Shown piece after piece: positions 22,253 to 64,000 of a stretch of DNA of 64,000 nt. The first letter of the stretch is position 1; every line of letters begins with the position of its first letter. Location: NCBI GenBank assembly GCA_965263355.1, contig CBDHHL010000032.1, positions 2,016,001-2,080,000 on the forward strand, read 5' to 3'. The translations under genes were made by a program, and so were the position numbers. The notes below the pieces were generated by a model. That model saw only the letters and a program-made list of their open reading frames with translations. It was not told where the DNA came from and searched no databases. Source of the DNA: Leptolyngbyaceae cyanobacterium. GTDB lineage: Bacteria; Cyanobacteriota; Cyanobacteriia; Phormidesmidales; Phormidesmidaceae.

Positions 22253-25200
22253 CTAAATGGCTTCCAGGGCCTCTAACAGCAGGGCTTCTGCCTCTGCTTC
22301 GGACAGATCTTCCACAGCTTCTCTGGACAGATCGCTGGACAGAACAGTGTCCTCCAGAGGACTGGCTGGCGTCAGGGAAGACGCTGGCGCGGCACTGGGA
22401 ACAGGCTCTTGATTGGGGAAGAGTATTTGGGCCAGGTGTTGGGCCAGGGCATCCAGGGTGGGATAGTCAAATACCAGGGTGGAGGATAGGGATTGCCCCA
22501 GGGATGTCTGCAACGTGTTGCGCAGTTCCACCGAGGTCAAGGAGTCCATGCCCAAATCAAAGAAGCCTTGGTGCAGGTCAAAAACATGGGTGGGACTCAG
22601 CCGTAACACTTTTCTCAGCTGGTCTTGTAAATGCTCTGAGAGTCCTGCAGCCCTCTCTTCAGCCGGTAGTTCAGCCAGGGCCAAAATGACCTCGGAGGGA
22701 CCACTGGCCGCTTGCCTAGTCAGTGGCAGAGATGGAGCTAGGGCCGACAACAGGGGTGAAATGGTGGGTGTTTGACTGAAAAACTGTTCCCAGCGCACGG
22801 GCATGACACCCACCTGAGCTGCAGGTTGTTGTAACAGTTGATCTAGGGCCTGGAACCCGGTGTCGGGCTCAATCATATCTAAGCCCATGGAGAGCAATCG
22901 CTGTTGTTCTCGTTCATCTAACTGGGCTGCCATACCGCCTGCTGCCCAGGTGCCCCAGTTGATACTTAGGGCAGGCAGTCCCAACCCCTGGCGATAGTAG
23001 GCCAGACTGTCTAGAAAGCTGTTGGCAGCCGCATAATTAGCTTGCCCCGGAGAGCCCAGCATGGCTGCCACTGACGAGAACAGCATGAAATAATCGAGGG
23101 AAAGATCTTGGGTTAGCTGGTGTAGATGCCAGGCCCCAGTAACCTTAGGTGCCATCACCCGATTAAATCGCTCAGGGGTTTGTTGAGCCAGTAAGGCATC
23201 GTCTAGCAAACCAGCGGCATGGAACACCCCCCGCAACGGTGGCAGACTTGTTTGGATCTCTGTTATCACCCGGCTGAGGTCGTCAACCTGGGTAACATCG
23301 GCCTGGAATACCCGCACGGTTACGTCAGGTCCTGTTGGCAGTGAGGCCCCATCAGCGGACCGACGGCTCAATAACACGAGATGTTTAGCGCCATGGTCAA
23401 TTAGATGTTGGGCCAGCTGGCGACCCAAACTGCCCAGACCACCGGTAATCAGATAGGTGGCATCTGCCGTTAGCGCTAACGGCTCGGCAGATGTGGCAGT
23501 GGCCCGAGTTAACCGGGCCACATGGCGTTGTTGTCGTATTGCGATCGCATCTCCCGTAGGAGCCAACAGTTCAGGCAGTAGCTGCTGGGCCTCATTTACT
23601 GGCGATGGCGCTGTAGCTAGGTCCACCAGCCCGCCCCAAATAGCAGGCTGTTCCAGGGCAATCACCCGTCCCAGACCCCATAGGGGAGCAGCGCCCACCT
23701 GGGCTACGGTGGTCTCCACGGCCTGGGTTCCTCGGGTCACAAACCAGAGTTTACCGCCTGTGCCACTGAGGGCAGCGCCAAGACCCTGGGCCAGGGTTAG
23801 TCCCGTGTGTACCACTCGCTGTTGAGTTTGGGTCAACGTCTCCCATGGGTCGGGTAAATCAGCCCCCCATAGATGAATGACCCCAGCCAGGGGCATGCTT
23901 TGACGAATAACGGTTTCAAAGAGCTGTTGCCAGTCTTCAGAACGTTGGGGATTCACCTGCCAGAGACTCCCCTCCAATTGCAGGGTTTCCCCAGCCCTAA
24001 TTTGGGTACAGCTATGGCCTTGCTGAGTCAGTTGTTGAGTCAGGGCCTCACCGACACCCTCCCCATCGGCTAACACTAACCAGTGACCATTGGCAGGGAT
24101 AACGCCGGACGGCTCCATGGCTGGCTGAGGCTGCCAATCTACCTTGTAGAACCAGTCTTGCCAGCTGGGTTGGGCCAGCTGTTGGAGAGTTTCCTTGCGA
24201 ATGCGTCGGACCTGGAGATTGTTCAAAATGGCTAAACAGTGGCCGGTCTCATCAAACAGATGCAGGTCTGCCTGACGAATGGGCTGTTCTGCCGCCGCCG
24301 GATAAATTTTGCCATGGATCCACAGGGGACCTCGAACCGGCTGAGCCAATGAGAGTTGTCCTAAACCGATGGGTAAGTAGGTCTCTTCGCCATTCTCTGG
24401 CAGGGTGGCAAACAGTAATTGGAACCCTGCATCCATTAGGACTGGATGGAGCTGATAAACGGCATCGGCGGGCACTCCTGCCGGGAGTTGTACCTGACCC
24501 AGGGCCTCATTGTCGTGTTTCCAGAGCTGCTGGATGCCCTGGAAACTGGGACCGTATTCTAACCCTCGCGATCGCAGCTGTTGATAATAGGCGGCTTTCT
24601 CCACCGGTTCAGTACAGCGGGCCTGGGCCTCTGCCAGGGTCAACGATGGCGTGAGTTTAGCCGTTGTCGCCAGGTTACCAACCGCATGCTGTATCCAGTC
24701 TGTGGAGCTGGATTGGCCATTAGATGTTCCGAGGGAGTCAGTACTGACAATCCGGAAGCTACCAGTGGACGAGACCACCATCTGCACATGGCGACTGCCG
24801 GATTGGGGCAGCACCATGGCGGTTTCAATGGAGATATTTTCGAGACCATAACTATCCTGGCCATAACTACCCTGGTCAGGGTATTGGATCGCGGCCAATG
24901 CCATTTCTAAATAGCCAGCCCCTGGTAGCACCACCAGCCCCGCCACCTGGTGACCCGCTAGCCAGGGCTGTTGCTCCAGACTAAGCTGCGCCGAAAAGAC
25001 AGTCTCATCGAGGGCAAGGGGAATCGGTTCAGCAATTAAAGGATGCCCTGGGTTAGTAACGGTTTCAACGGTTTTTTCGACCCAGTAACGTTCTCGCTGC
25101 CAGGCATATAGGGGCAGTGAGACAACTCGGCAGTCCGGTGGAAACAAACCATCCCAGTTTACTGACTGCCCTTTAACGTAAAGCTTGCCCAGCGTAGATA

Positions 25201-27408
25201 ACATGGTCGCCCGCTCCGGTTGGTCCGGCGATAGCGAAGGCAATACCGTTATCGTTTCAGTGGACTGCAGTTGAGATGTGGGGCTGATTTCCAGCAGGGT
25301 GGCATAGCCAGCTTCGGCAACGGCCCCCAGACTTGCAATTAAATCTCCAGACGCGGTCACTGTTTTCTCCCAGTGCTCAATCTCCAAGGGAGATTCTGTC
25401 AACCAATCCACAGCGACGGTGGAAAACAGCGGTAACTTACCTGGGGCAAGAATAGGCTCCTGTTTAAGAGAACCCCTATTCTCGTCTGACTGGCTGCGAT
25501 CGCAGACCAGCGCTACCGCATCCCGTAGCTTTAATCTACCGGCCACGTGAGCGGCTGTAATCTCTCCTAATCCATGGCCTACAACAGCTCGGGGTTCCAC
25601 TCCCCAATACCGCCATAGCTGGGCCAGGGCAAGTTGAATTGCAAACAGTGCAGGCTGAGCTATGGCCGGTGTCTGTAGACGAGAGGTCGAGACATCAGCC
25701 GTCAGTTCAGCTAATAATGACCACCCCGCACAGTCACGGATCAGAGCATCGCAATCTTTAAGCACCGCCCGAAAAACCGGCTCACTCTGCAATAGGGTTT
25801 TCCCCATACCGAGCCACTGGGTGCCTGTATCGGTAAACACAAAAGCAACCTTGGGTCCACGACGCTTGATGGGTAAAGCGTCGGCCACTTGCTCCAGCTG
25901 CTGTTTGAGATCATCGATAGAACTAGCCACCACCGCCAATCGATATTTTTGATGAGATCGGCGGGCACTGGCGGTATAACAAATGTCCTGCAGAGAGAAA
26001 TCAGCAGATGATTGTTGTTCCAGCCAGGTTTGATACGTTTTCGCCTGCCCCTGAAGTGCTTCAAGGGAATGGGCTGATAGGGGTAACAGCTGGATATCAC
26101 TGAGGGGGGATGACGTCGGCAGCTCAGCTGGAGCCTGTTCTAAGACCACATGGGCATTAGTCCCCGCAAAGCCAAAAGCACTCACACCGGCCTTAGCAAG
26201 TCTCGATGTTTGGGTCCAGGGGGTGAGGGTCTGTTGCACCTTAAAGGGCAATCGGTCAAAGGGAATGTGAGGATTGGCCCTGTCAAAATGTAAGCTGGGC
26301 GGAATATGGCCATGTTTGAGGGCCAGGGTGGTTTTAATCAAGCTGGCAATACCCGCTGCCGCCTCCAGGTGACCGATATTGCTTTTTACCGCCCCCAGGC
26401 TACAGGTGGCATCGGTCGGTCGCTGTTCAGTTAAAACATCCGCCAGGGCCATCACTTCAATGGGATCCCCCAAAGCGGTGCCCGTACCATGGGCTTCAAT
26501 GTAATCCACCTCCCCTGGCGCAATCTCTGCTTTGGTCAATGCTTCCCGTACCACCGCAGATTGGGAGGGACCATAGGGGACCGTTAATCCTTTACTACGC
26601 CCGTCGTGGTTAATGGCGCTGCCGCGAATGGTGGCGTAAATTGGATCACCATCCATCTGTGCTGGGAAAGCGGCTTGAGAATTACACAGCCAGCCCCTTC
26701 ACTGCGGACATAGCCATTAGCACTGGCATCGAAGGTCTTACAGCGACCATCGGGGGAAAGGGCCTTAAGTTTAGTCAGTCCCAAATTACCAATAGGGGAC
26801 AGAATAATATTGACGCCCGCTGCCAGAGCCAGGGTAGACTCCTGGTTCCAGAGACTTTGACAAGCCAGGTGAACGGCCACCAAAGACGAGGAACAGGCGG
26901 TGTCTACGACCAAGCTTGGCCCGCGAAAATTAAATACATAGGAAAGCCGACCGGCAACAATATTGAGGGCATTACCTGTTAAGTCATAGCCCTGGGGCTG
27001 GGTATCATAGTCCGACTCCACCCGGCTGTAATCATTGGTGGAGATACCGACAAACACTCCTGTACGAGAGCCTGCCAGGTCCTCCCGTACCTGACCGCCA
27101 TCCTCCAACGCCTCCCAGGCAACCTCCAAGAGCAATCGTTGTTGCGGATCCATGGAAACCGCTTCTCTCGGTGCAATCCCAAAGGGATGGGGATCAAATA
27201 AATCGACTCGATCTAAAAAACCACCGTAGCGGGAACAGATTTTACCGGGGACATCGGGATCGGGATCATAAAACTGAGATAATGGCCAACGGTCAGTTGG
27301 AATCTCTGTGATAGCATCGACGCCATCACAGAGCAGCTGCCAAAAGGCTTTGGGGTTAGGCGCTTGGGGAAAACGACAACCAATACCAATAATTGCAATG
27401 GGTTCCAT
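22253..27408 (-). CDS. Modular type I PKS: KS-AT(inactive)-DH-KR-ACP, interrupted by a 1-nt deletion near 26662
   Basis: KS N-half in ORF 26584..27408 (MEPIAIIG, DTACSSS), C-half in ORF 22253..26656 (HGTGT). One added G restores ILKPLSQAQMDGDPIY. AT GHGLGE; DH HQVAGLVVLP; KR LDD motif; ACP LGMDSL. Confidence 0.9.
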
Positions 27409-41654: not shown

Positions 41655-44600
41655 TTAAACAACCTCAGTAGGCACCTGTGTAGCGCCTAAATCCATTAGG
41701 GCAGACATCATTACATCGGTTAACCCGATCACTCCGTTAATATTCATTCCCTCGTAGGGGCGGGCAGTTTTCATCGTCCTAATGCACTCACTAGATTGGA
41801 TATCCCATAGCCTGATTGTTTCGTCGTCACTGCTGCTAGCGAGTAGCTGACCATTAGCAGAGGGCTTGATCGACCAGATAGACCCCATATGTCCCTGCAA
41901 CTTTCTGATACAGCAACCACTTTCGATATCCCAACATCTGATCGTATTGTCATCACTGCTAGTCGCAATCAGGTTGTCTTCTGCAATAAAGCAGATAGTC
42001 TGCAACCAAGTTATGCCTGTTTGCAAGACTGTCAAGCATTCCCCTGTTAAAACAGAATAGATATGAATGGTTTGGTCAGGGCCAGCAGTCGCCAGTCGTT
42101 TGCCGTTAGCACTGATTGCGATCGCCCAAATCAAGCTAGTATGTCCTGACAAAATCTTCAGGCACTTGCCTGTTTGAACATCCCATAATCGAGTGGTTTT
42201 GTCCCATGAACCACTGGCAAGAATGCCAGCTTGAGCGCTAAATGCTACCGACCACACAGCCCCCTCATGACCTGTGAGGGTTTTTACTAATCGTCCTGAG
42301 GCCGTATCCCACAGATTAATGGTGCAATCTTCAGAACCGCTGGCCAGCATTTGCCGTTTGCCATCTTTGAGAAACGTGACCGATAGTACGGCTGCCTGAT
42401 GCCCTCGCAGTGTTCGAATAGCACAGCCTGATTTTACGTTCCACAGCTTTAAGGTGGTATCGCCGCTAGCGCTGACCAGCATCTCATCATCGTCAGGGTT
42501 AAATACTACATCGTGAATACAGTTAGAATGCCCCGCACAGATTCGTATACACTTTCCTGTCTCGATATGCCATAGCTTCAGGGTTCTGTCACGGCCACCA
42601 CTAACTAAAACGTTGCTGTTGGGGCTAAACGCCACGGAAAGAACTTGATTGGTATGACCTTGCAATGTCTTTAAACATTGGCCTGTCTCTGGATTCCAGA
42701 GCTTTACAAGTTGACAGTGACCACCACTGGCCAATAGATTTTCACGGGGACTAAACGCTACTGAAAAAACCCAGCTATCATGGCCCTGCAGAGTATTGAC
42801 ACAGTCCCCCTGTTTCAGATCCCAGATCTTAACGGTTTGGTCATGGGCACCACTGGCAACAAACTTACTTCGAAAGTCAAAGGCTACAGAAAAAACTCGG
42901 TTTGTATGTCCCTCAAATGTTTTAATGCATTGCCCCGTATTGGTATCCCACAGGTGAACTCGGTAATCTTCATCACCACCAGCAATAAATTGGCCACAGG
43001 TCGAAACTGCAATTGAGCGGATACTACTACCGATACTCTCAAAGGTGCGATCGCACTCACCAGCCTCAATATCCCAAGTTTTGACTGTAGAATCATCGCT
43101 ACAACTAACTAACAAATCTTTCCTCGCTTTATGCCCTTGGCAAGAAACTGAACTGTCTTCGCCATTGACTTGCATAAATTTGACAGAAAGCACCCAGCTC
43201 TGATGGCCTGTCAAGGCTTGAAAGAGCTCACCTGAATTAACATGCCAAAGTCGAATTTTTCGATCATCACAACCACTGGCCAATAACTCACCATCAGGAC
43301 TGAACTCAACCGCCCAAACTTCATCGTCATGCTGACCCAGGATGTTTAAGCAATGCCCCCTTTTGATGTCCCATATTCTAGCAGTACGATCAGTACTTCC
43401 ACTTGCCAGTAAACAACCGTCTGGGCTAAAGGAAATTGAGGTAACCCAACCGGCATGGCTGCCTAGACTATGTAGCAATTGACCAGTGTCAACTTGGTAT
43501 AAGTATATTTCTCCATGGTTATCGCCTACGGCTAAAAGCTTGCCATCAAGAGAAAACGCCACCGAGAAAATGGCTCCAAAGGTATTGGTAAATAAGCAGC
43601 GATCAAAACTAACCCTGGCAAAATTAGTCTTGTTCAGATGTACATTCGTAAAATCTGCTTGCCGAATCGCAATACTTGAAAAGTCACGATTATTTAGATT
43701 TGTTCCCAATTGAATCAGAAGATTGATGATGTTGCCGCCAAGATAGCCAGCATCTAAGTTTACGTTTGTTTGCTGTTGGCTTAAAACTTCGTACAGATGC
43801 AGCTCCAGGTTAGAGCTGCCTCGAAAATTTTGTTTTAGCCGCTCCAGAACAGGCAAAATAAACAAACGGATTTGAACTTGCTTCACATAGTCATCTGCAG
43901 TTGCTTTCATCAAAGCATGTGTAATCAGTAAAGAGAAGTCCTGCTCAACAATTTCTCGACAAGCTTCTTCGACTATCATCATGTTAATGTGGCTGATGAC
44001 AACAGATTGCATAGAAAAACATGAGTCAACCTGTTCAATCAAACAGCGCCGATTTAACGACTCAATAGCTTCAAAAAGATCAGATTTTGACGTTACGGTA
44101 ACTATGTCCTGGCATAGGTCACTTAGGGTAATAGGCTCATGATTAATGGCAAGCCAAATCAATATCTCTCTCTCAAGTTTAGTAAGCCGCCGACAGTGCT
44201 GCTCAATTAAATCTCGAATCCCACCAAATACAACTATTTCTTGAGCTAAAAATTCTGAAATATTGCCATCAAAAACCTCCCTGATCAACGTCGAAGTCAT
44301 TTCCAACGCAAGCGGGTTTCCCTTATAGCGTTCAACGACTTGGTTGAGATGCTCAACTTGACCATTGACCCTCTTTTTCTCAAGAATTTTCCTGCCAAAT
44401 TCAGTCTCTAGCCCTTCTAGTCTCAGGGCTTTGACAGGTATTCCTTCCCCCTCCATAAACGATGTTTCTTTGGGCTTCTCACGAGTTATAATTAACAAAC
44501 AGCTTTGATGAGCAGTTTCGATAACTTTTCTGAAGAGATCGCCATAGGCTTCATAGCCGTTGAGAAATCGCCCAGCATAGTGATTATCACAGAATAAAGC

Positions 44601-45233
44601 ATCAACATTATCTAATACAATCAAGCAGCGAGATGTGCGCAGGCAATCAATCAGTTTTAGTATTTTCTGAAGGTTATTGGCGGATTTGCTAGCGCTTTTA
44701 GATTCACCTGATATTGACTGAACTAAATCGTTTACCAAAATATCAAAGGCGGTCATATTGCGAAGTGATTTCCAAATCACGCAATCAAACTTTTCTATTG
44801 AAGATTCCAGTAGCCGCACAGATAAACTCGTTTTGCCCAGACCACCTATGCCGAACACAGTTACCAAACGGCATTTGTCCACGATGATCCATTGCTGTAG
44901 AAGCTTAAGTTCCTGATCTCTGCCAGCAAAAAACAGGGGAGATGGCATACTCCTTAAGTCTTTGCAAGTTTTCCTAGTTTCACTAGAGTAAAAATCTTCA
45001 GATAACTCAATCTCAAACGCTTGAAAGAGGAGTTCAAGTGTTCGCTTATCAACCTTTTCGCGACTGTTTAACGCTTTTCTAGCGGTGGCAGGATCTAAGC
45101 CTGCTATTTGACCTATTTTCTCAAGTGATAACCGTCCAACTTCATAATGTATGCTTTCATATTCTTTGAGGACCGCTTGAAACTTTTCTAACCCTTCAGT
45201 GGTTAATCTAACCCCTCGATTTCGCCTTTTCAT
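41655..45233 (-). CDS. NB-ARC (STAND) NTPase with N-terminal HTH-like domain and WD40 repeats
   Basis: FAGRDQEL, Walker [21 protein letters not shown]; more than 12 GH..WD repeats. Confidence 0.92.
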
Positions 45234-51856: not shown

Positions 51857-52651
51857 ATGAGTTTTCCCCACATATCAACTAGTTGGCTTGTCTGTCCTAA
51901 TCAGAATTCTGCAGCCAGATTACGATTATTTTGTTTCCCCTGTGCGGGAGGAATGATATCTGCCTATACTCGTTGGGCTAAATTGTTACCTTCAGACATT
52001 GAAGTTCATGTCGTGCATTTGCCGGGTCGAGGGAAGCGTTTTGAGGAACCACTTTTTCTGCGTTTAACTGATCTGCTACCTGTTCTTGCTGAGGCGATGA
52101 TGCCCTATTTGGATATTCCTTTTGCTTTTCTGGGGCATAGCATGGGAGCTGTTCTATGTTTTGAGTTAGCACGCTACCTGCGCAAAGAAAAAGCCAACTT
52201 TCCTTTGCACTTAATCTGTTGTAGCTGTCCAGCACCACAAACGCCCATAGCTACACCGCACATTCATACCCTGGACCAGAAAGAATTTTTGGCTGAATTG
52301 AATCTTCGCTACAATGCTATACCTTCCCATATTCAGAATGATCCAGATATTCTCGGTCTCTTTTTGCCAAGTTTACGTGGAGATTTTACAATACTTGAGA
52401 ATTATGAGTATACGCCTGATTTACCATTAAATTGTCCAATTAGTGTTTATTCTGGACTACAAGATAAAGCTATTAGTGATTCTGACCTTGCTGGATGGTG
52501 TGATCAAACCAGTAAGGACTTTGAATTGATTATGTTTAAAGGAGATCACTTTTTTCTGCACAATCCTTCTCAAGCGTTAGTAGATAGATTAACTCATACA
52601 TTAAAAAATCTTAGTAGCGCTAAGGAGTCAATGTTGGGCACATTTGTTTGA
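51857..52651 (+). CDS. Type II thioesterase
   Basis: RLFCFPCAGG, GHSMGA, GDHFF. Confidence 0.93.
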   Translation: MSFPHISTSWLVCPNQNSAARLRLFCFPCAGGMISAYTRWAKLLPSDIEVHVVHLPGRGKRFEEPLFLRLTDLLPVLAEAMMPYLDIPFAFLGHSMGAVLCFELARYLRKEKANFPLHLICCSCPAPQTPIATPHIHTLDQKEFLAELNLRYNAIPSHIQNDPDILGLFLPSLRGDFTILENYEYTPDLPLNCPISVYSGLQDKAISDSDLAGWCDQTSKDFELIMFKGDHFFLHNPSQALVDRLTHTLKNLSSAKESMLGTFV

Positions 52652-53088: not shown

Positions 53089-54384
53089 CTAGGCTGGCCA
53101 ACGTAGCAGAACCACTTCTTCTTTAAGGTCCACTTCGGTTTTTGAGGCACGTCTGGTGCGGAAGAGGTCGATACCGATTAGTTCATAGCCGAGGTCTTGA
53201 GCAATTTGGGCTAATAGAGAACCGGTGGGAATATGCACCTGCAGGTAAGATGCTTGTTCACCGACGACATAGGCTAACTGAGCATTGGGGCGAAGGAGCG
53301 ATCGCAAATTAGCCAGGTGGCAGGCCATACCCCCAAAGTACAGCTTAGTGGCCCGAGCATACAGTCGAGAGAAGCCACTGGTTTTGCCTAACTCATCCCG
53401 GCGTTGATTGATGGTGTCGGCAATCTCTAAAATTTGCGGATAATTTTGAATCCATTGATCATCATCGTCATCTCGATAAACACTGCGGCTATTGGAACGC
53501 AATAGGTCATGCTTAATTGCTTGCAACCCTGCCTTATTTTCGACAAACCCCAATAAAACTGATTCTAGGCGGGTGGTACGGGTGTAATCTTTTTCATTGG
53601 GATAGGGGGGAGACGTAATTACCATATCAATGGAGCCTGGAGCAATATGCCGATGGGGTTGGCGAGCATCGCCCAGATATACGACTGCGGGTTGGCTGAT
53701 CAATGACTGGGTATTGAGACGATTCAAATCGTCAGCCATCACAGTGACTTGCCCTAGCCAATGATCAACCACCTGGGCATCTAGCTTGTGTTTACGGGCA
53801 ACGCTGACCTCCGGCGCAAACCGTAGATTACTAGCAACCACGGCTGAATTTGCCAGGGCCAGACGATAGTGTCCTAAAAAGGTGCGATCGCAAATACGAT
53901 CAATGTGTCCTAATAACGTCAGTACTTTTTGTAGCGGTCGTGGGCTAATAGCATCCTTAAACAGAAGTGCCGCCGCATCTGGAGATAATGTAGGGGCCAG
54001 ATGCGGCAGTAAGGCAATTTCCTCGTGAGCAGCTGTGGCAATGGTTTGAGCCGTTTGGGATAGAGCTTCAGGCCGAGATGACCAATCTAATTTTACACAG
54101 CAGGCAAAATGGGCCATCGGGTTAGCTTCAATCCCAACAGCAGACAGGCCCAGTTTTTTCACCTCGACCAGAGTTGTACCCGTTCCAGCAAACGGATCTA
54201 AAACAACAGTTGTGTCAGTTGCTTGAAATCGCTCAAGATAGTGTCTGACAAGATGGGGCGGAAAAGACAGAACAAAACGATACCAGCCATGAATAGCCCG
54301 ATCCTTAGAACTAAGCTGATTACGGGCTTTACGACCAAGCTCAAGGCCAAGCAGATCGGAATCAGATAACTTAAAAGATGCCAT
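53089..54384 (-). CDS. Amino-DNA methyltransferase (probably N4-cytosine, alpha motif order), orphan
   Basis: Motif I DPFAGTGTT precedes motif IV ITSPPY. Confidence 0.85.
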   Translation of the reverse strand: MASFKLSDSDLLGLELGRKARNQLSSKDRAIHGWYRFVLSFPPHLVRHYLERFQATDTTVVLDPFAGTGTTLVEVKKLGLSAVGIEANPMAHFACCVKLDWSSRPEALSQTAQTIATAAHEEIALLPHLAPTLSPDAAALLFKDAISPRPLQKVLTLLGHIDRICDRTFLGHYRLALANSAVVASNLRFAPEVSVARKHKLDAQVVDHWLGQVTVMADDLNRLNTQSLISQPAVVYLGDARQPHRHIAPGSIDMVITSPPYPNEKDYTRTTRLESVLLGFVENKAGLQAIKHDLLRSNSRSVYRDDDDDQWIQNYPQILEIADTINQRRDELGKTSGFSRLYARATKLYFGGMACHLANLRSLLRPNAQLAYVVGEQASYLQVHIPTGSLLAQIAQDLGYELIGIDLFRTRRASKTEVDLKEEVVLLRWPA

Positions 54385-54645
54385 TGGCAACTGTAGTACA
54401 ACACTTGGCTTGACCCCATACAAACTATAAAGACACCAAATTCAGTATGGATTAACGCAAAGGTTAGGCTAAGAGTTTGATACCTTAGACAAAGGATGGG
54501 CCAGGGGCAGTATAGCGGATGTCGCCTTTCAGTACAAATGAATTATACAAACGGCGGCAACCGGGTTTCTAATTAGCCTGGGCCGACTATTTTTTATGGT
54601 ATTGATGGGGACCTGGTTCTATTCGACTGTTTCAAAGCAAATCAG

Positions 54646-55386: not shown

Positions 55387-56262
55387 CTACAGTTCTGAAT
55401 TTAGGCAGGGGTTAGCCCTTACCATACCAAGACCTAAAAACGTTTTTTGGCCAATGCCACAGTAGCGGCTAAAGTTAGTCAACGCGTTAATGCGCTTAAT
55501 AATTAACGGATCAGTTGCAGCGGATATTTGAAACGTTACATTGCCCAGACAGCCGGTAATCGTTTCATTTTTGCCTAGGGGTACGGATATGGTGCGTAGA
55601 TTAAACGTTTTTGTCGTAATCGAGTTAACCGTATCAGGAGCAAAGACCAGACCACTATAACGGTTCCAACATTTGCGTAAACTGTGAAACACCGCTTCCC
55701 GTGTCGGTAGTGGCGACTCTTGTTCGCCCTGATGAAAAACAGCCGGGGTAACAAACTGAAAGATCAGATCACGGTTAGTGTCAGAGGCTCGTTCATAAAG
55801 TTTTTGATAGCTACTATGGCTAGACCATTCAGGGATATTAGCCGGTAGAAAATTGGTGACATGCAATCGCGCTGGTCCTAGATACCAGGGTTTACGGGCA
55901 ACTGCTCGCTCCAGACGTGGACTGATGTGATCAAACAGAGTGTCATCTAATAATGAAATCCGCCACCAGCAGTGGGACCCAGCTGGTACAGAACTATTAA
56001 CATATTGAAATTGGGTAGTTTCAAGCTGCTGACGTGGTAGCAAAAACTTTAAATTACGCGCTGATGTAGGTTGGGGTTGGGATGCTATTTGCAGAGGGCT
56101 GAGGGTAAAGGCTGGGTATTTGTAGTTTTGAAGTGATTGACCCAGCTCGCCATCAACAGCACTGACAAGAGCTAAAAATAGCCGATATAGGTGATGCCCT
56201 CTAAGGTATTGAAATGGGATGGTTGATTCGGAAACTAGATTAATAACTAAACTTTCAGGCAT
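55387..56262 (-). CDS. cas6: Solitary CRISPR-associated endoribonuclease Cas6
   Basis: N-terminal MPESLVINL, FTLSPL, WWRISLLDD, FVTP and C-terminal G-loop YCGIGQKTFLGLG. Confidence 0.88.
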   Translation of the reverse strand: MPESLVINLVSESTIPFQYLRGHHLYRLFLALVSAVDGELGQSLQNYKYPAFTLSPLQIASQPQPTSARNLKFLLPRQQLETTQFQYVNSSVPAGSHCWWRISLLDDTLFDHISPRLERAVARKPWYLGPARLHVTNFLPANIPEWSSHSSYQKLYERASDTNRDLIFQFVTPAVFHQGEQESPLPTREAVFHSLRKCWNRYSGLVFAPDTVNSITTKTFNLRTISVPLGKNETITGCLGNVTFQISAATDPLIIKRINALTNFSRYCGIGQKTFLGLGMVRANPCLNSEL

Positions 56263-60836: not shown

Positions 60837-60871
60837 CTTTGACTAGTTGCGTATACCGCAACTAGTCAAAG
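60837..60871. terminator. Perfect 15-bp hairpin CTTTGACTAGTTGCG-TATAC-CGCAACTAGTCAAAG overlapping the TPR gene stop
   Basis: Seen directly. Confidence 0.6.
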
Positions 60872-62876
60872 ATGTTTTCTGAGGATTTCCAGGTTGCCCT
60901 GCACGACCTTGGTTGATGGATGATCTGCCCCCAAAATCCGCTCGAAAATCTTCAGCGCTTCAAGATAGAGCGGTTCGGCTGCCTCATAACGGCCTTGATT
61001 GTCGTAGAGTAACGCCAAGTTATTGAGGCTTAATGCGACATCGGGATGCTTGTCGCCCAACAGCTCTTTGCTCATCTCAAGCGCTTCAAGATAGAGCGGT
61101 TCGGCTGCCTCATAACGGCCTTGATTGTCGTAACGCCAAGTTATTGAGGCTTGACATCGGGATGCTTGTCGCCCAACAGCTCTTTGCGCATCTCAAGCGG
61201 TTGCCGCCAAGTTATTGAGGCTTAATGCGCTTCAAGATAGAGCGGTTCGGCTGCCTCATAACGGCCTTGATTGGCGTAAGTGCCGCCAAGTTATTGAGGC
61301 TTAATGCGACATCGGGATGCTTGTCGCCCAACAGCTCTTTGCGCATCTCAAGCGCTTCAAGATAGAGCGGTTCGGCTGCCTCGTAGCGCCCTTGAGCATT
61401 TAAATAAAAACCGGCTTGATTACAAATTAATCCCAGCGCTTCAGTTCGCACATTCTCTTGCTCAGCATAGTTCCGCACTTGTAACCAATGAGGCAATAGC
61501 CCAGCACAGTAAACCCAATACTTAAATTCACTTCCAGGATACGCCGCATTTAGCCCCTCAACTCCAAAGGTCACCCAACCAGTCCGCACCGCCTCATCCA
61601 TCTCATCCCGCACCACCGACTGCACCAACCGATGCACCCCATAGCGCTGGTTCTCCCCATCCCACCGCACCAGCGAGTACTGGCTCAATGGTTCCAATAA
61701 TTCCGCCATCGTCACCACCGCCAGGTCATACTCCTCCTGCCCCAGCAGTTCTGCTAGAGTCTTCCCCAAGTGCTTGGCCCCAGCAATCACCATCCAATAG
61801 GGAATATCATCCGGCGCAAAAAAAGCACTTAGTTGCAATAGCTCCGACGAAGCCGGACTTTTTTCTGCCACCGCCTCAACGTTCAGCTTCCAGGTCTTCA
61901 GCACCGACGATGGATACTTGCCCGTCTTGGCCTTAGCCTTTTCTAACTGCGTCAGCCCCAACCGATCATAGAGCTTCAAATAACTCTCAAACCCAATATG
62001 CTGCTGCTTGATATACGCCCCAGCCTGCTCCAACGCCAAAGGTAATCCATCCAATTTTTCATTCAACGCCGCTGCACTGGCTTCCTCTTTCCGCCCCGTC
62101 CGCTGCAATAGTAGTGCTACCGCCTCATCTTCGTGCAACACATCCAACGCAATCGGCTGCTTAATCCCCACCGAGTCAAACACCGCTGCCCGCGATGTCA
62201 GCAATACCGTTCCTTTAGGATTATTCGGCAACCAATCCACTAGCAGTTCTGGCTCATCCGCATTGTCAAACACCAGCAGCCAGCCATCTTGGTTCGTCAA
62301 CCACGCCCGCACCGCCGGAATTTTCTCCTCTTCAGTCCCCTTTGCTTCCGGTAACACCAACTGAGCCGCCAGGTTAGCAAAATCCGTCGCCAGGTTAGTC
62401 CCCGTATCCGCCTTTACCCAAAACACATAGCTATAAAACGTTTCGTCATAGAAATACCGATAGGCATACTCCACTGCCGTCTGGGTTTTACCAATGCCCC
62501 CCAATCCGCTGATCGCCTGCACCTGACTAATCGCCACCGCCTTCATTTGCGTTAGCTGCCGGTGCAATTTTTTCAGGATCTCAGTTCGTCCCGTAAAGTA
62601 AATATTCCGCTGGTAAGGCACCCCAAAACATACCGGTTCCCCTGGCTTTGCTGCCGTCATCCCTTGGTAAATCTCAACCTTGGCATTTTCTCCAATTGAG
62701 CCAATACCAATATTTTTATCTCCTGTAAATTGTTGCTTTACCTGAGTTGTTTCTGGTGTGGCAACATTATTTTTTTGCACAACAGCATCCCGTTTCCCTC
62801 GACCCCACAACCGAGAAACCCACGCCGCAATGCGCTGTATCAACCGCCTGAACCAGCTCCGCCGTCGCCTCACCAC
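60866..62876 (-). CDS. NLR-like NB-ARC + TPR protein; TPR tail frameshifted or scrambled (about 61120-61290)
   Basis: FTGRTEIL, GLGGIGKT, WLLVFDNA, GLPLALEQA; near-identical TPR units (QGRYEAAEPLYLEALEM.KELLGDKHPDVALSLNNLA) continue in ORF 60866..61075. Confidence 0.85.
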
Positions 62877-63302
62877 CTAACCCTGGGTAATGTTGACCGA
62901 CCCACTGGAGCTACCAATCACAATATTCCTATCCCCAACCACCGACTGCGCCACACTTACCGCCTGACCAACAGTCTCAGCATCCTTATCCAACAGCCCC
63001 TGCAATTCCTGTGCCAACTCCGGATTTGCCACCAGCACCTTCTTCAACTGAGACAACCAAATCTCCTGCGCCTCATCATCCTCACCATTTTCCGCCAACG
63101 CTTCCGCCGCCCCCTTCGCCAACGGCTTTTCCGTCACCTTCGGAGCCAGCTTACCCCACGCCTGCTTCGCCGTTTCCCAAGTCCCTTCCCCCAGCTTTTT
63201 ACCCAGCGCTTTACCAGTTTCCTCTGCAACAGGTTTACCCAACTTCAACAAATGAGGCAAAAACGGAGACAAAAACGAAGCCAAAAGAGCCGCCAGTTCC
63301 AT
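62877..63302 (-). CDS. Bell-domain-like helical protein with C-terminal amyloid-like motif
   Basis: Likely start MELAALLASFLSPFLP at 63302; helical body; C-terminus VAQSVVGDRNIVIGSSSGSVNITQG; abuts the NLR gene. Confidence 0.75.
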   Translation of the reverse strand: MELAALLASFLSPFLPHLLKLGKPVAEETGKALGKKLGEGTWETAKQAWGKLAPKVTEKPLAKGAAEALAENGEDDEAQEIWLSQLKKVLVANPELAQELQGLLDKDAETVGQAVSVAQSVVGDRNIVIGSSSGSVNITQG

Positions 63303-63397
63303 GGTCACTATTTTCCAAACTACTGCCCACAGTTTAGCCACAAATTCCCAAAATCAGGCCCCATCAATATAAAAATCACCCCAACGGGTACCACAAA

Positions 63398-63720
63398 CCC
63401 CCCTCGTAGGGTGGGTAAACACCCCACCACCCCCCTAATCATCTCGCCGAAGAATTATAACCTTACCCACCGTTCACCCAAATTCGAATATGACCAAATC
63501 CCTATGAGCCAAATCCCCCCTCGTAGGGTGGGTAAACACCCCACCAACCCCTTTACCATCTCGCCAGACTATAACCTTACCCACCGTTCACCCAAATTCG
63601 AATATGACCAAATCCCTATGAGCCCCCCCCCTCGTAGGGTGGGTAAACACCCCACCACCCCCCTGATCATTTCGCCGAAGAACTATAACCTTACCCACCG
63701 TTCACCCAAATTCGAATATG
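63398..63720. repeat. Three tandem units (periods 117 and 111 bp) each with a GTAG-type REP-like palindrome
   Basis: CGTAGGGTGGGTAA...TTACCCACCG at 63405, 63522 and 63633; units nearly identical. Confidence 0.88.
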
Positions 63721-63763: not shown

Positions 63764-64000
63764 TCAACCAACCAGCCAATCCTCCATATGCAGATGAAGA
63801 ATATTCTCAAAATGACGAATATTATTAGTCACAACAATATCCCCACGAGAACGAGCCACAGCAGCAATCAGCGCATCCACTTCACCAGTCGGTTTACCTA
63901 TACGTCTCAATTCTCCTTGGAGCTTACCAAATTCTTCAGCTGCCAGCTGATCAAACGGAACAACCAACAAAAGGCTTAGTAATTGCTTCAGCACAGCCAG
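63764..64000 (-). CDS. vapC: PIN-domain toxin (3' part; start outside window)
   Basis: VPFDQLAAEEFG..GKPTGEVDALIAAVARSRGDIVVTNNIRHF..EDW. Confidence 0.88.
   Translation of the reverse strand: MAVLKQLLSLLLVVPFDQLAAEEFGKLQGELRRIGKPTGEVDALIAAVARSRGDIVVTNNIRHFENILHLHMEDWLVG

Follow-up and report, generated by a model that had tools for sequence, protein, structure and literature searches.

Does the small Bell-domain gene at this cyanobacterial locus, together with the NLR gene directly behind it, encode an amyloid-signaling pair, and is the motif that the two proteins share a new one? Bell/NLR pairs were described in 2020, and the Bab paper (10.1101/2024.11.07.622273), in the part of its text available, still calls their biological function unresolved. 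An earlier note on the window, that is, the whole stretch of 64,000 nucleotides analyzed, had recognized here the layout of bacterial amyloid signaling (BASS), namely, a Bell effector and an adjacent NLR with a common motif. All testable features were found to agree with this layout, which is built from the following genes and domains.

62877..63302, minus strand: Bell-domain effector gene, 141 aa (P0001), from ATG at 63302 to TAG at 62877; the protein has a hydrophobic N-terminal helix with Glu2, a helical bundle to about residue 122, and then an unstructured tail
60866..62876, minus strand: NLR gene (P0002), encoding in order helix, linker, motif, NB-ARC, DUF7779, and TPR array
61926..62576, minus strand: NB-ARC domain (Pfam, residues 101–317, E 3.8e-10), with Walker A at 124 and Walker B at 200
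60866..61420, minus strand: TPR_10/TPR_12 array whose 126-nt units are nearly identical and which several deletions have scrambled in the assembly

With its 141 residues and the acidic Glu2, the Bell protein corresponds to the BASS definition of a Bell (about 120–140 aa, acidic residue at position 2 or 3), and the acidic residue is kept in 42 of the 44 homologs that have a residue at this site. An AlphaFold2 model shows a helical bundle over residues 2–122 followed by a low-confidence tail, with pLDDT of about 80–88 over residues 1–110; the mean hydropathy of the first helix is 1.33. Neither a comparison of this model with solved cell-death helical bundles (no hit with an E-value of 0.001 or below; best E 1.4; best Z 4.7, with rmsd 5.1 and 97 aligned residues) nor a sequence and fold search of solved structures gave anything significant, which does not imply a new fold. 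Variable topology among Bell folds is reported in the available part of the Bab paper (10.1101/2024.11.07.622273). The Bell protein belongs to no family in Pfam, NCBIfam, or PADLOC, and the NLR gene was likewise matched by none of the PADLOC families. Its ortholog EKU96909.1 from Leptolyngbya PCC 7375 (P0009) is 69% identical; the named homologs are filamentous-type cyanobacteria, with Leptolyngbyaceae the closest, and a search of 401 cyanobacterial genomes found Bell in 28.

The NLR gene starts with GTG at 62876, with a gap of 0 nt to the Bell stop codon, and the two genes are collinear. Pfam assigns NB-ARC (101–317), DUF7779, and TPR_10/TPR_12 to the product, which scores 299.7 bits with NF040586 (cut-off, 300) and is 57% identical to the PCC 7375 NLR, EKU96908.1, whose reading frame is open over 725 aa. 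Thus, as in published BASS pairs, the Bell gene is followed by an adjacent, collinear NB-ARC and TPR gene whose N-terminal region lies within 10–150 aa, the NB-ARC domain beginning at residue 101. Translation mainly from an internal start at Met74, which would omit both the helix and the motif, was rejected, because it is not conserved, close relatives carry a start codon behind the Bell stop, and the helix is under selection (see below).

The two proteins share one short segment each.

62880..62954, minus strand: Bell-side amyloid-type motif, residues 117–141, VAQSVVGDRNIVIGSSSGSVNITQG, of QTVTGD type at the BASS6 fringe
62661..62741, minus strand: NLR-side amyloid-type motif, residues 46–72, VKQQFTGDKNIGIGSIGENAKVEIYQG, ahead of NB-ARC

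The sharing of a motif between the Bell tail and the NLR segment preceding NB-ARC, claimed previously, was confirmed, 13 of 27 positions being identical (48%) with one 2-residue gap. One correction concerns position: the NLR-side motif does not stand at the start of the NLR, being preceded by a 26-residue amphipathic segment and a linker. Local alignment, run with the parameters published for BASS (BLOSUM62, gaps 14/4), scored 44 across 19 columns; published BASS pairs are defined by a minimum score of 40 and a minimum length of 15 residues. When the NLR N-terminus was shuffled 5000 times, one shuffle attained this score of 44; for the Bell tail, 5 of 5000 did. Moreover, a profile of Bell tails only, including the window's own, matched NLR residues 43–60 with an E-value of 6.5e-6 for one sequence. 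Both motifs have the composition described for BASS motifs (rich in Q, N, G, V, and I; poor in K, P, and L): these five residues account for 16 of 25 positions on the Bell side and 16 of 27 on the NLR side, P and L are absent, and three K occur on the NLR side. The core of the Bell motif is kept in 42 of 46 homologs, both motifs contain a conserved Asn (Bell N126, NLR N55), and the NLR motif has a dN/dS of 0.32 in 10 Nostocales genes, indicative of purifying selection. In the published data available, the motifs of cross-seeding BASS pairs are 43–56% identical; the 48% found here falls inside this range and thus counts in favor of an amyloid switch.

Is this motif new, as the earlier note had considered possible? 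The sequence of EKU96909.1 closes with a 30-residue string identical to the BASS training entry C09_s012 / K9EIA1_9CYAN (PMC8086366, supplement 1), from which we infer that K9EIA1 and EKU96909.1 are the same protein. In the part of the BASS data available, the README maps C09 to BASS6, so that the Bell side of the PCC 7375 pair is in the BASS6 set, whereas its NLR, EKU96908.1, is found in the file of NLR N-termini under 'class not assigned', in the same unassigned group as the Nostoc-type pair BAY13571.1 and BAY13572.1. A surrogate BASS6 profile, built from six canonical-type tails and distinct from the published HMMs, gave 25–45 bits for canonical pairs, 7.8 for the PCC 7375 tail, 3.1 for the window Bell, 0.4 for the window NLR, and 0–8 for the QTVTGD type in general. 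The central G-hydrophobic-Q-hydrophobic-G signature, given for BASS3 in the literature covered and RHIM-like, occurs in neither of the window motifs. By these sequence comparisons, the window motif is an already known, poorly modeled fringe of BASS6. A wholly new family is therefore not found, since the PCC 7375 and Nostoc-type pairs are already in the BASS data; what stands, weakly, is that the motif lies at the BASS6 fringe and that its NLR side was left without a class there. The locus is a real Bell/NLR pair of a known kind that opens no new family, and it is less novel than had been hoped, because its ortholog is already in the published BASS data.

The two motifs were further compared across homologous loci. 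Among 108 loci fetched, a Bell match was present in 107, a complete short Bell in 92, and a P-loop gene downstream in 41; these 41 and the window, minus one truncated and eight duplicate rows, gave 33 non-redundant pairs, 27 of which reached the published pair score and length. Motif scores averaged 65.6 for own partners and 39.4 for other partners (0 of 100000 permutations, a value inflated by relatedness). Cross-scoring of the 33 pairs revealed no pair-level co-evolution within the QTVTGD group, and the window Bell tail ranked its own NLR 17th of 33. Motif specificity is thus at the family level only.

The strongest evidence of co-variation is the exchange of motifs at two loci, L002 and L052. 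Their Bell domains are 88% and 84% identical to that of the window, yet their tails consist of a double motif which, judged by eye, is similar to BASS4 entries (BASS4-like), and their NLRs lack the window-type motif and carry a BASS4-like motif in their N-termini. The own-pair scores were 27 for L002 (rank 3, below the cut-off) and 44 for L052 (rank 1), and cross-scores with the window pair were 21–31. The DNA identity of the Bell genes between the window and L002 is 63–97% per 30 nt through the first 330 nt and 13–17% after nt 360. A clade of QTVTGD Bells that excludes L002 and L052 was rejected (AU p 0.00015; a first tree had been seen before the group was named). Conversely, the QTVTGD cassette also occurs on NLR bodies just 23–36% identical to that of the window (L003, L006, L007, and L053, in a quick NLR tree), and at least six motif types change jointly on both genes of related Bells. 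These results show a cassette of Bell, helix, and motif grafted onto differing NLR bodies, in which the motif is exchangeable if both genes change together. The co-variation of motifs in homologous pairs, which the earlier note had set as its own check, has accordingly withstood the comparison, the motif type switching on both genes. All-in-one Bell–NB-ARC–TPR fusions were found in 4 of 118 NLR homologs (P0206, P0049, P0284, and P0234), as expected if Bell is the effector of the NLR.

As side observations, a worn motif persists at the junction of the P0206 and P0049 fusions, from which the helix is gone, and in one further Bell clade (L126–L137 and L145) two more motif types, BASS9/10-like (by eye) and a SYDES type, alternate on one NLR family. 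An orphan Bell at L001:5001-5435 has an intact motif and no NLR behind it, with ParA, recombinase, and IS256 genes nearby.

The segment preceding the NLR motif had been overlooked previously, as had the TPR frameshift described below.

62799..62870, minus strand: Arg/Trp-rich amphipathic helix, NLR residues 3–26, predicted membrane anchor

The net charge is +10 over NLR residues 1–30, the apolar face is continuous (W8, F9, L12, I13, I16, A17, W19, V20, L23, and W24), and the mean hydropathy is −0.14, as compared with that of the first Bell helix given above. A twin-arginine signal, judged by the twin-arginine rule, was rejected by eye, arginines being present throughout and a hydrophobic core absent. 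Such a combination of high positive charge and an apolar face bearing Trp and Phe is characteristic of interfacial membrane anchors; the cationic, Trp-rich make-up also resembles that of lytic peptides. From this composition, a role of the helix in keeping the switch at the membrane is predicted.

The distribution of the helix was scored by a rule (an 18-mer with hydrophobic moment of at least 0.6, charge of at least +3, Trp present, and no Pro; loosened once). Over 52 pairs, it was detected in 18 of the 21 with the window motif group (QTVTGD, 8 of 9; Nostoc-type, 10 of 12) and in none of the 31 with other motifs. Of the three misses, L009 encodes the helix ahead of a premature stop. The helix is optional in some pairs, L018 and L053 being without it; L120, outside the 52-pair count, is a Bell neighbor with the helix and a related motif. 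The rule also holds for 5 of 226 long ORF starts in the loci, 4 of which are such Bell neighbors. In an NLR-selected sample (n = 118, relatives that are not independent), helix and motif occurred together in 9, helix only in 1, motif only in 6, and neither in 102. A helix profile matched 3 of 401 cyanobacterial genomes (at most 19 candidates scored per genome), each time directly behind a Bell gene; one of the three is a training member, and one had already been sampled. With residues 1–100 of the PCC 7375 NLR as query, no match was scored among 27 candidates, and an Atlas search with NLR residues 1–80 gave no usable match. In the 10 Nostocales genes, the helix has a dN/dS of 0.43, as against 0.84 in the linker and 0.18 at the start of NB-ARC; two close pairs give 0.19 and 0.17 for the helix. 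Judged from these values, the helix is translated and under purifying selection. No passage on an amphipathic or anchoring helix occurs in the covered texts of 10.1101/2020.01.06.895854, a fungal NLR paper, and a 2026 review, and no paper describing the helix was found; figures, bioRxiv supplements (Table S2, motif logos), and subscription journals may bear on it.

In the assembly, the NLR reading frame is open for 554 aa (62876–61212), the final TPR units and the stop codon lying in another frame, and the array contains five deletions (1 nt, 46 nt, one complex, 5 nt, and 5 nt). At 61278, a base absent from the assembly is carried by all depth in runs X2 and X3, which derive from one sample. 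Read depth, which does not give copy number here, peaks on the intact unit of the array and is 0–10 on the scrambled part. Over the stretch that runs from the NB-ARC gene to within or beyond the Bell gene, the contigs of runs X1–X3 (two samples) differ from the assembly at 0–1 positions; no contig of the listed runs covers the entire array. The TPR frameshift is probably an assembly error and the true array probably longer, since contigs from two runs, both of one sample, do not have the first frameshift. In the literature covered, NLRs of bacteria and fungi are described as having internal repeats of high identity. The end of the gene is marked by one further element.

60837..60871, no strand assigned: 15-bp perfect inverted repeat covering the NLR stop codon, terminator-like by consensus match only

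Run X1 also contains a second Bell allele at 63053–63339 of the window, with 21 differences in 287 nt and a depth of 8.2; the contigs of this run end near 63053–63082, and the depth is higher on the 5′ side. This allele is possibly another Bell copy or a strain with a different 3′ end.

Collectively, we favor, with a probability of about 0.75, a Bell/NLR module in which a ligand triggers amyloid formation by the NLR, templating of Bell, and killing, with the helix tethering the receptor. The NLR would sense a ligand, likely phage-derived, via the TPR array and oligomerize; its motif would take the amyloid fold and template the Bell tail, by analogy with BASS1 and BASS3; the hydrophobic first helix of Bell would then be freed to enter the membrane, likely killing the cell, by analogy with Bab/Agp; and the cationic helix at the start of the NLR may tether the receptor to the membrane. 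Gene order, domains, the common motif, family-level co-variation, and selection on the helix are the directly observed basis of this model. In the literature covered, where tests extend to BASS1, BASS3, and BASS11, the NLR-side motifs of BASS1 and BASS3 seed their Bell-side partners, and Bab uses amyloid templating together with its first helix to kill phage-infected cells (10.1101/2024.11.07.622273). By this analogy, the receptor would likely hand an amyloid fold to its small, membrane-damaging partner and so kill the infected cell. Counting against the model are motif specificity at the family level only, with the own-pair score of L002 below the cut-off; the lack of a significant structural match for Bell and of a PADLOC family for either gene; neighborhoods of related loci that show no defense island; the dispensability of the helix in some pairs; and NLRs that are broken or missing at several related loci.

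The same amyloid switch might operate with a helix that is no anchor, folding instead on the motif or NB-ARC, or binding Bell, and thereby blocking spontaneous seeding. An amphipathic helix could pack on protein just as well, and this one travels with one motif group (9 of the 10 helix-positive NLR homologs have the motif); neither the four all-in-one fusions nor the exchanged-motif pairs contain it. We nevertheless consider this unlikely, if worth keeping in mind: a charge of +10 together with an apolar face bearing Trp and Phe is that of an interfacial anchor, and the widely variable length of the nearly neutral linker between helix and motif, together with the presence of the helix on unrelated NLR bodies, argues against a fixed docking site on NB-ARC. 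The helix could also give the module a dual output, the NLR oligomer itself damaging the membrane by a ring of N-terminal helices like plant resistosomes, as might be suggested by an oligomerizing STAND protein that has, at its very N-terminus, a conserved amphipathic helix, cationic and Trp-rich like lytic peptides. This seems highly unlikely, since the helix is too weakly hydrophobic to span a membrane (−0.14 versus 1.33 for Bell) and all three profile matches lie directly behind a Bell, the helix never being seen to replace it.

If the TPR array were truly frameshifted, the pair would be a decayed remnant whose receptor cannot sense, in keeping with the five lesions as assembled, the lack of a listed contig spanning the array, and the broken or missing NLRs at five related loci (L001, L003, L005, L009, and L049). 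Against this improbable reading stand the missing base carried by all X2/X3 depth at 61278, the depth profile with its peak on the intact unit, the adjacent 114-nt repeat (see below), which is likewise off against the reads, and the intact remainder of both genes, which agrees with the runs. The least probable of the readings weighed is that the similarity reflects a low-complexity beta-arch linker or an old duplication, the two proteins acting independently. A score of 44 is barely above the cut-off, pair-level specificity was not seen, and stretches rich in G, N, Q, V, and I are easily aligned; yet shuffles that keep the composition rarely reach this score, motif types change jointly on related Bells, the NLR motif is constrained, and analogous pairs have been proven experimentally.

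Comparison with known systems places the tethered switch among close relatives. The PCC 7375 pair (EKU96909.1/EKU96908.1) is orthologous and agrees with the window in gene order, motif type, and the NLR's N-terminal helix, which is present in the deposited sequence and undiscussed in the BASS texts covered; the window differs in a shorter linker and in near-identical TPR units forming a mis-assembled or broken array. The BASS6 pairs of Dyrka et al. (10.1101/2020.01.06.895854), in the part of the paper available, likewise comprise a short Bell and an adjacent, collinear NB-ARC/TPR gene with a common motif of about 25 residues rich in G, N, Q, V, and I. Typical members have (A)SGERSVAIGG..TGD, whereas the window has the QTVTGD type, and, unlike the window, none of four canonical BASS6 pairs has the helix. 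Bab/Agp, a BASS11 system of antiphage abortive infection in E. coli (10.1101/2024.11.07.622273, as far as available), has a Bell-related effector templated by the adjacent gene product, as modeled here; its partner is TPR-GreA/B-PIN instead of NB-ARC-TPR, and Bab has a shorter Babybell domain and a different motif family. In fungal HET-S/NWD2, an NLR templates a membrane-targeting helical effector, as in our model, and two-gene and all-in-one forms coexist; it differs in having a NACHT-WD receptor and the HRAM motif, of which the effector carries two repeats, and the likeness drawn here is one of layout.

The pairs of this motif group may, tentatively and at somewhat less than even odds, constitute a distinct cyanobacterial BASS subfamily in which a helix-tethered NLR would nucleate amyloid at the membrane that Bell attacks, the cassette would move between unrelated NLR sensors, and natural motif exchanges would provide ready orthogonal pairs; if true, this would be a membrane-localized prion switch. 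The selected helix offers a handle on where in the cell amyloid signaling is nucleated, and natural Bells that are 84–88% identical with a different motif family allow a test of motif specificity with the effector nearly constant. The selected helix and the natural motif exchanges make the locus a modest, testable variant.

In the 11 related loci (61 neighbor ORFs, NCBIfam E up to 1e-12), neither a recognizable defense island nor conserved neighbors were found, and a search for a sigma-70-type promoter gave none (0 versus 3.1 in shuffles). Three tandem 114-nt units with a short palindrome lie at 63398–63720 of the window, between a PIN gene and the Bell start; they fold no better than shuffles (z −0.11) and are absent from the six related loci checked, and the assembly differs from the reads here, too. 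Upstream of Bell and co-oriented with it is the 3′ part of the PIN-domain (VapC-like) gene (63764–64000, minus strand). Elsewhere, the window carries a large hybrid biosynthetic cluster with NRPS and modular PKS genes (9764–40914, minus strand), and a thioesterase gene at 51857–52651 (plus strand). In the cluster, one KS is divided between overlapping ORFs (26584–27408 and 22253–26656), and further genes encode FabA-like, iterative KS/AT, and FabD-insert domains, which we take to resemble those of PUFA synthases. The remaining minus-strand genes include a Type II-like DNA methyltransferase (53089–54423), a Cas6 (55387–56262; best model Cas6d) with no further cas gene among the ORFs scanned, and a 1192-aa protein with a long WD40 array (41655–45233).
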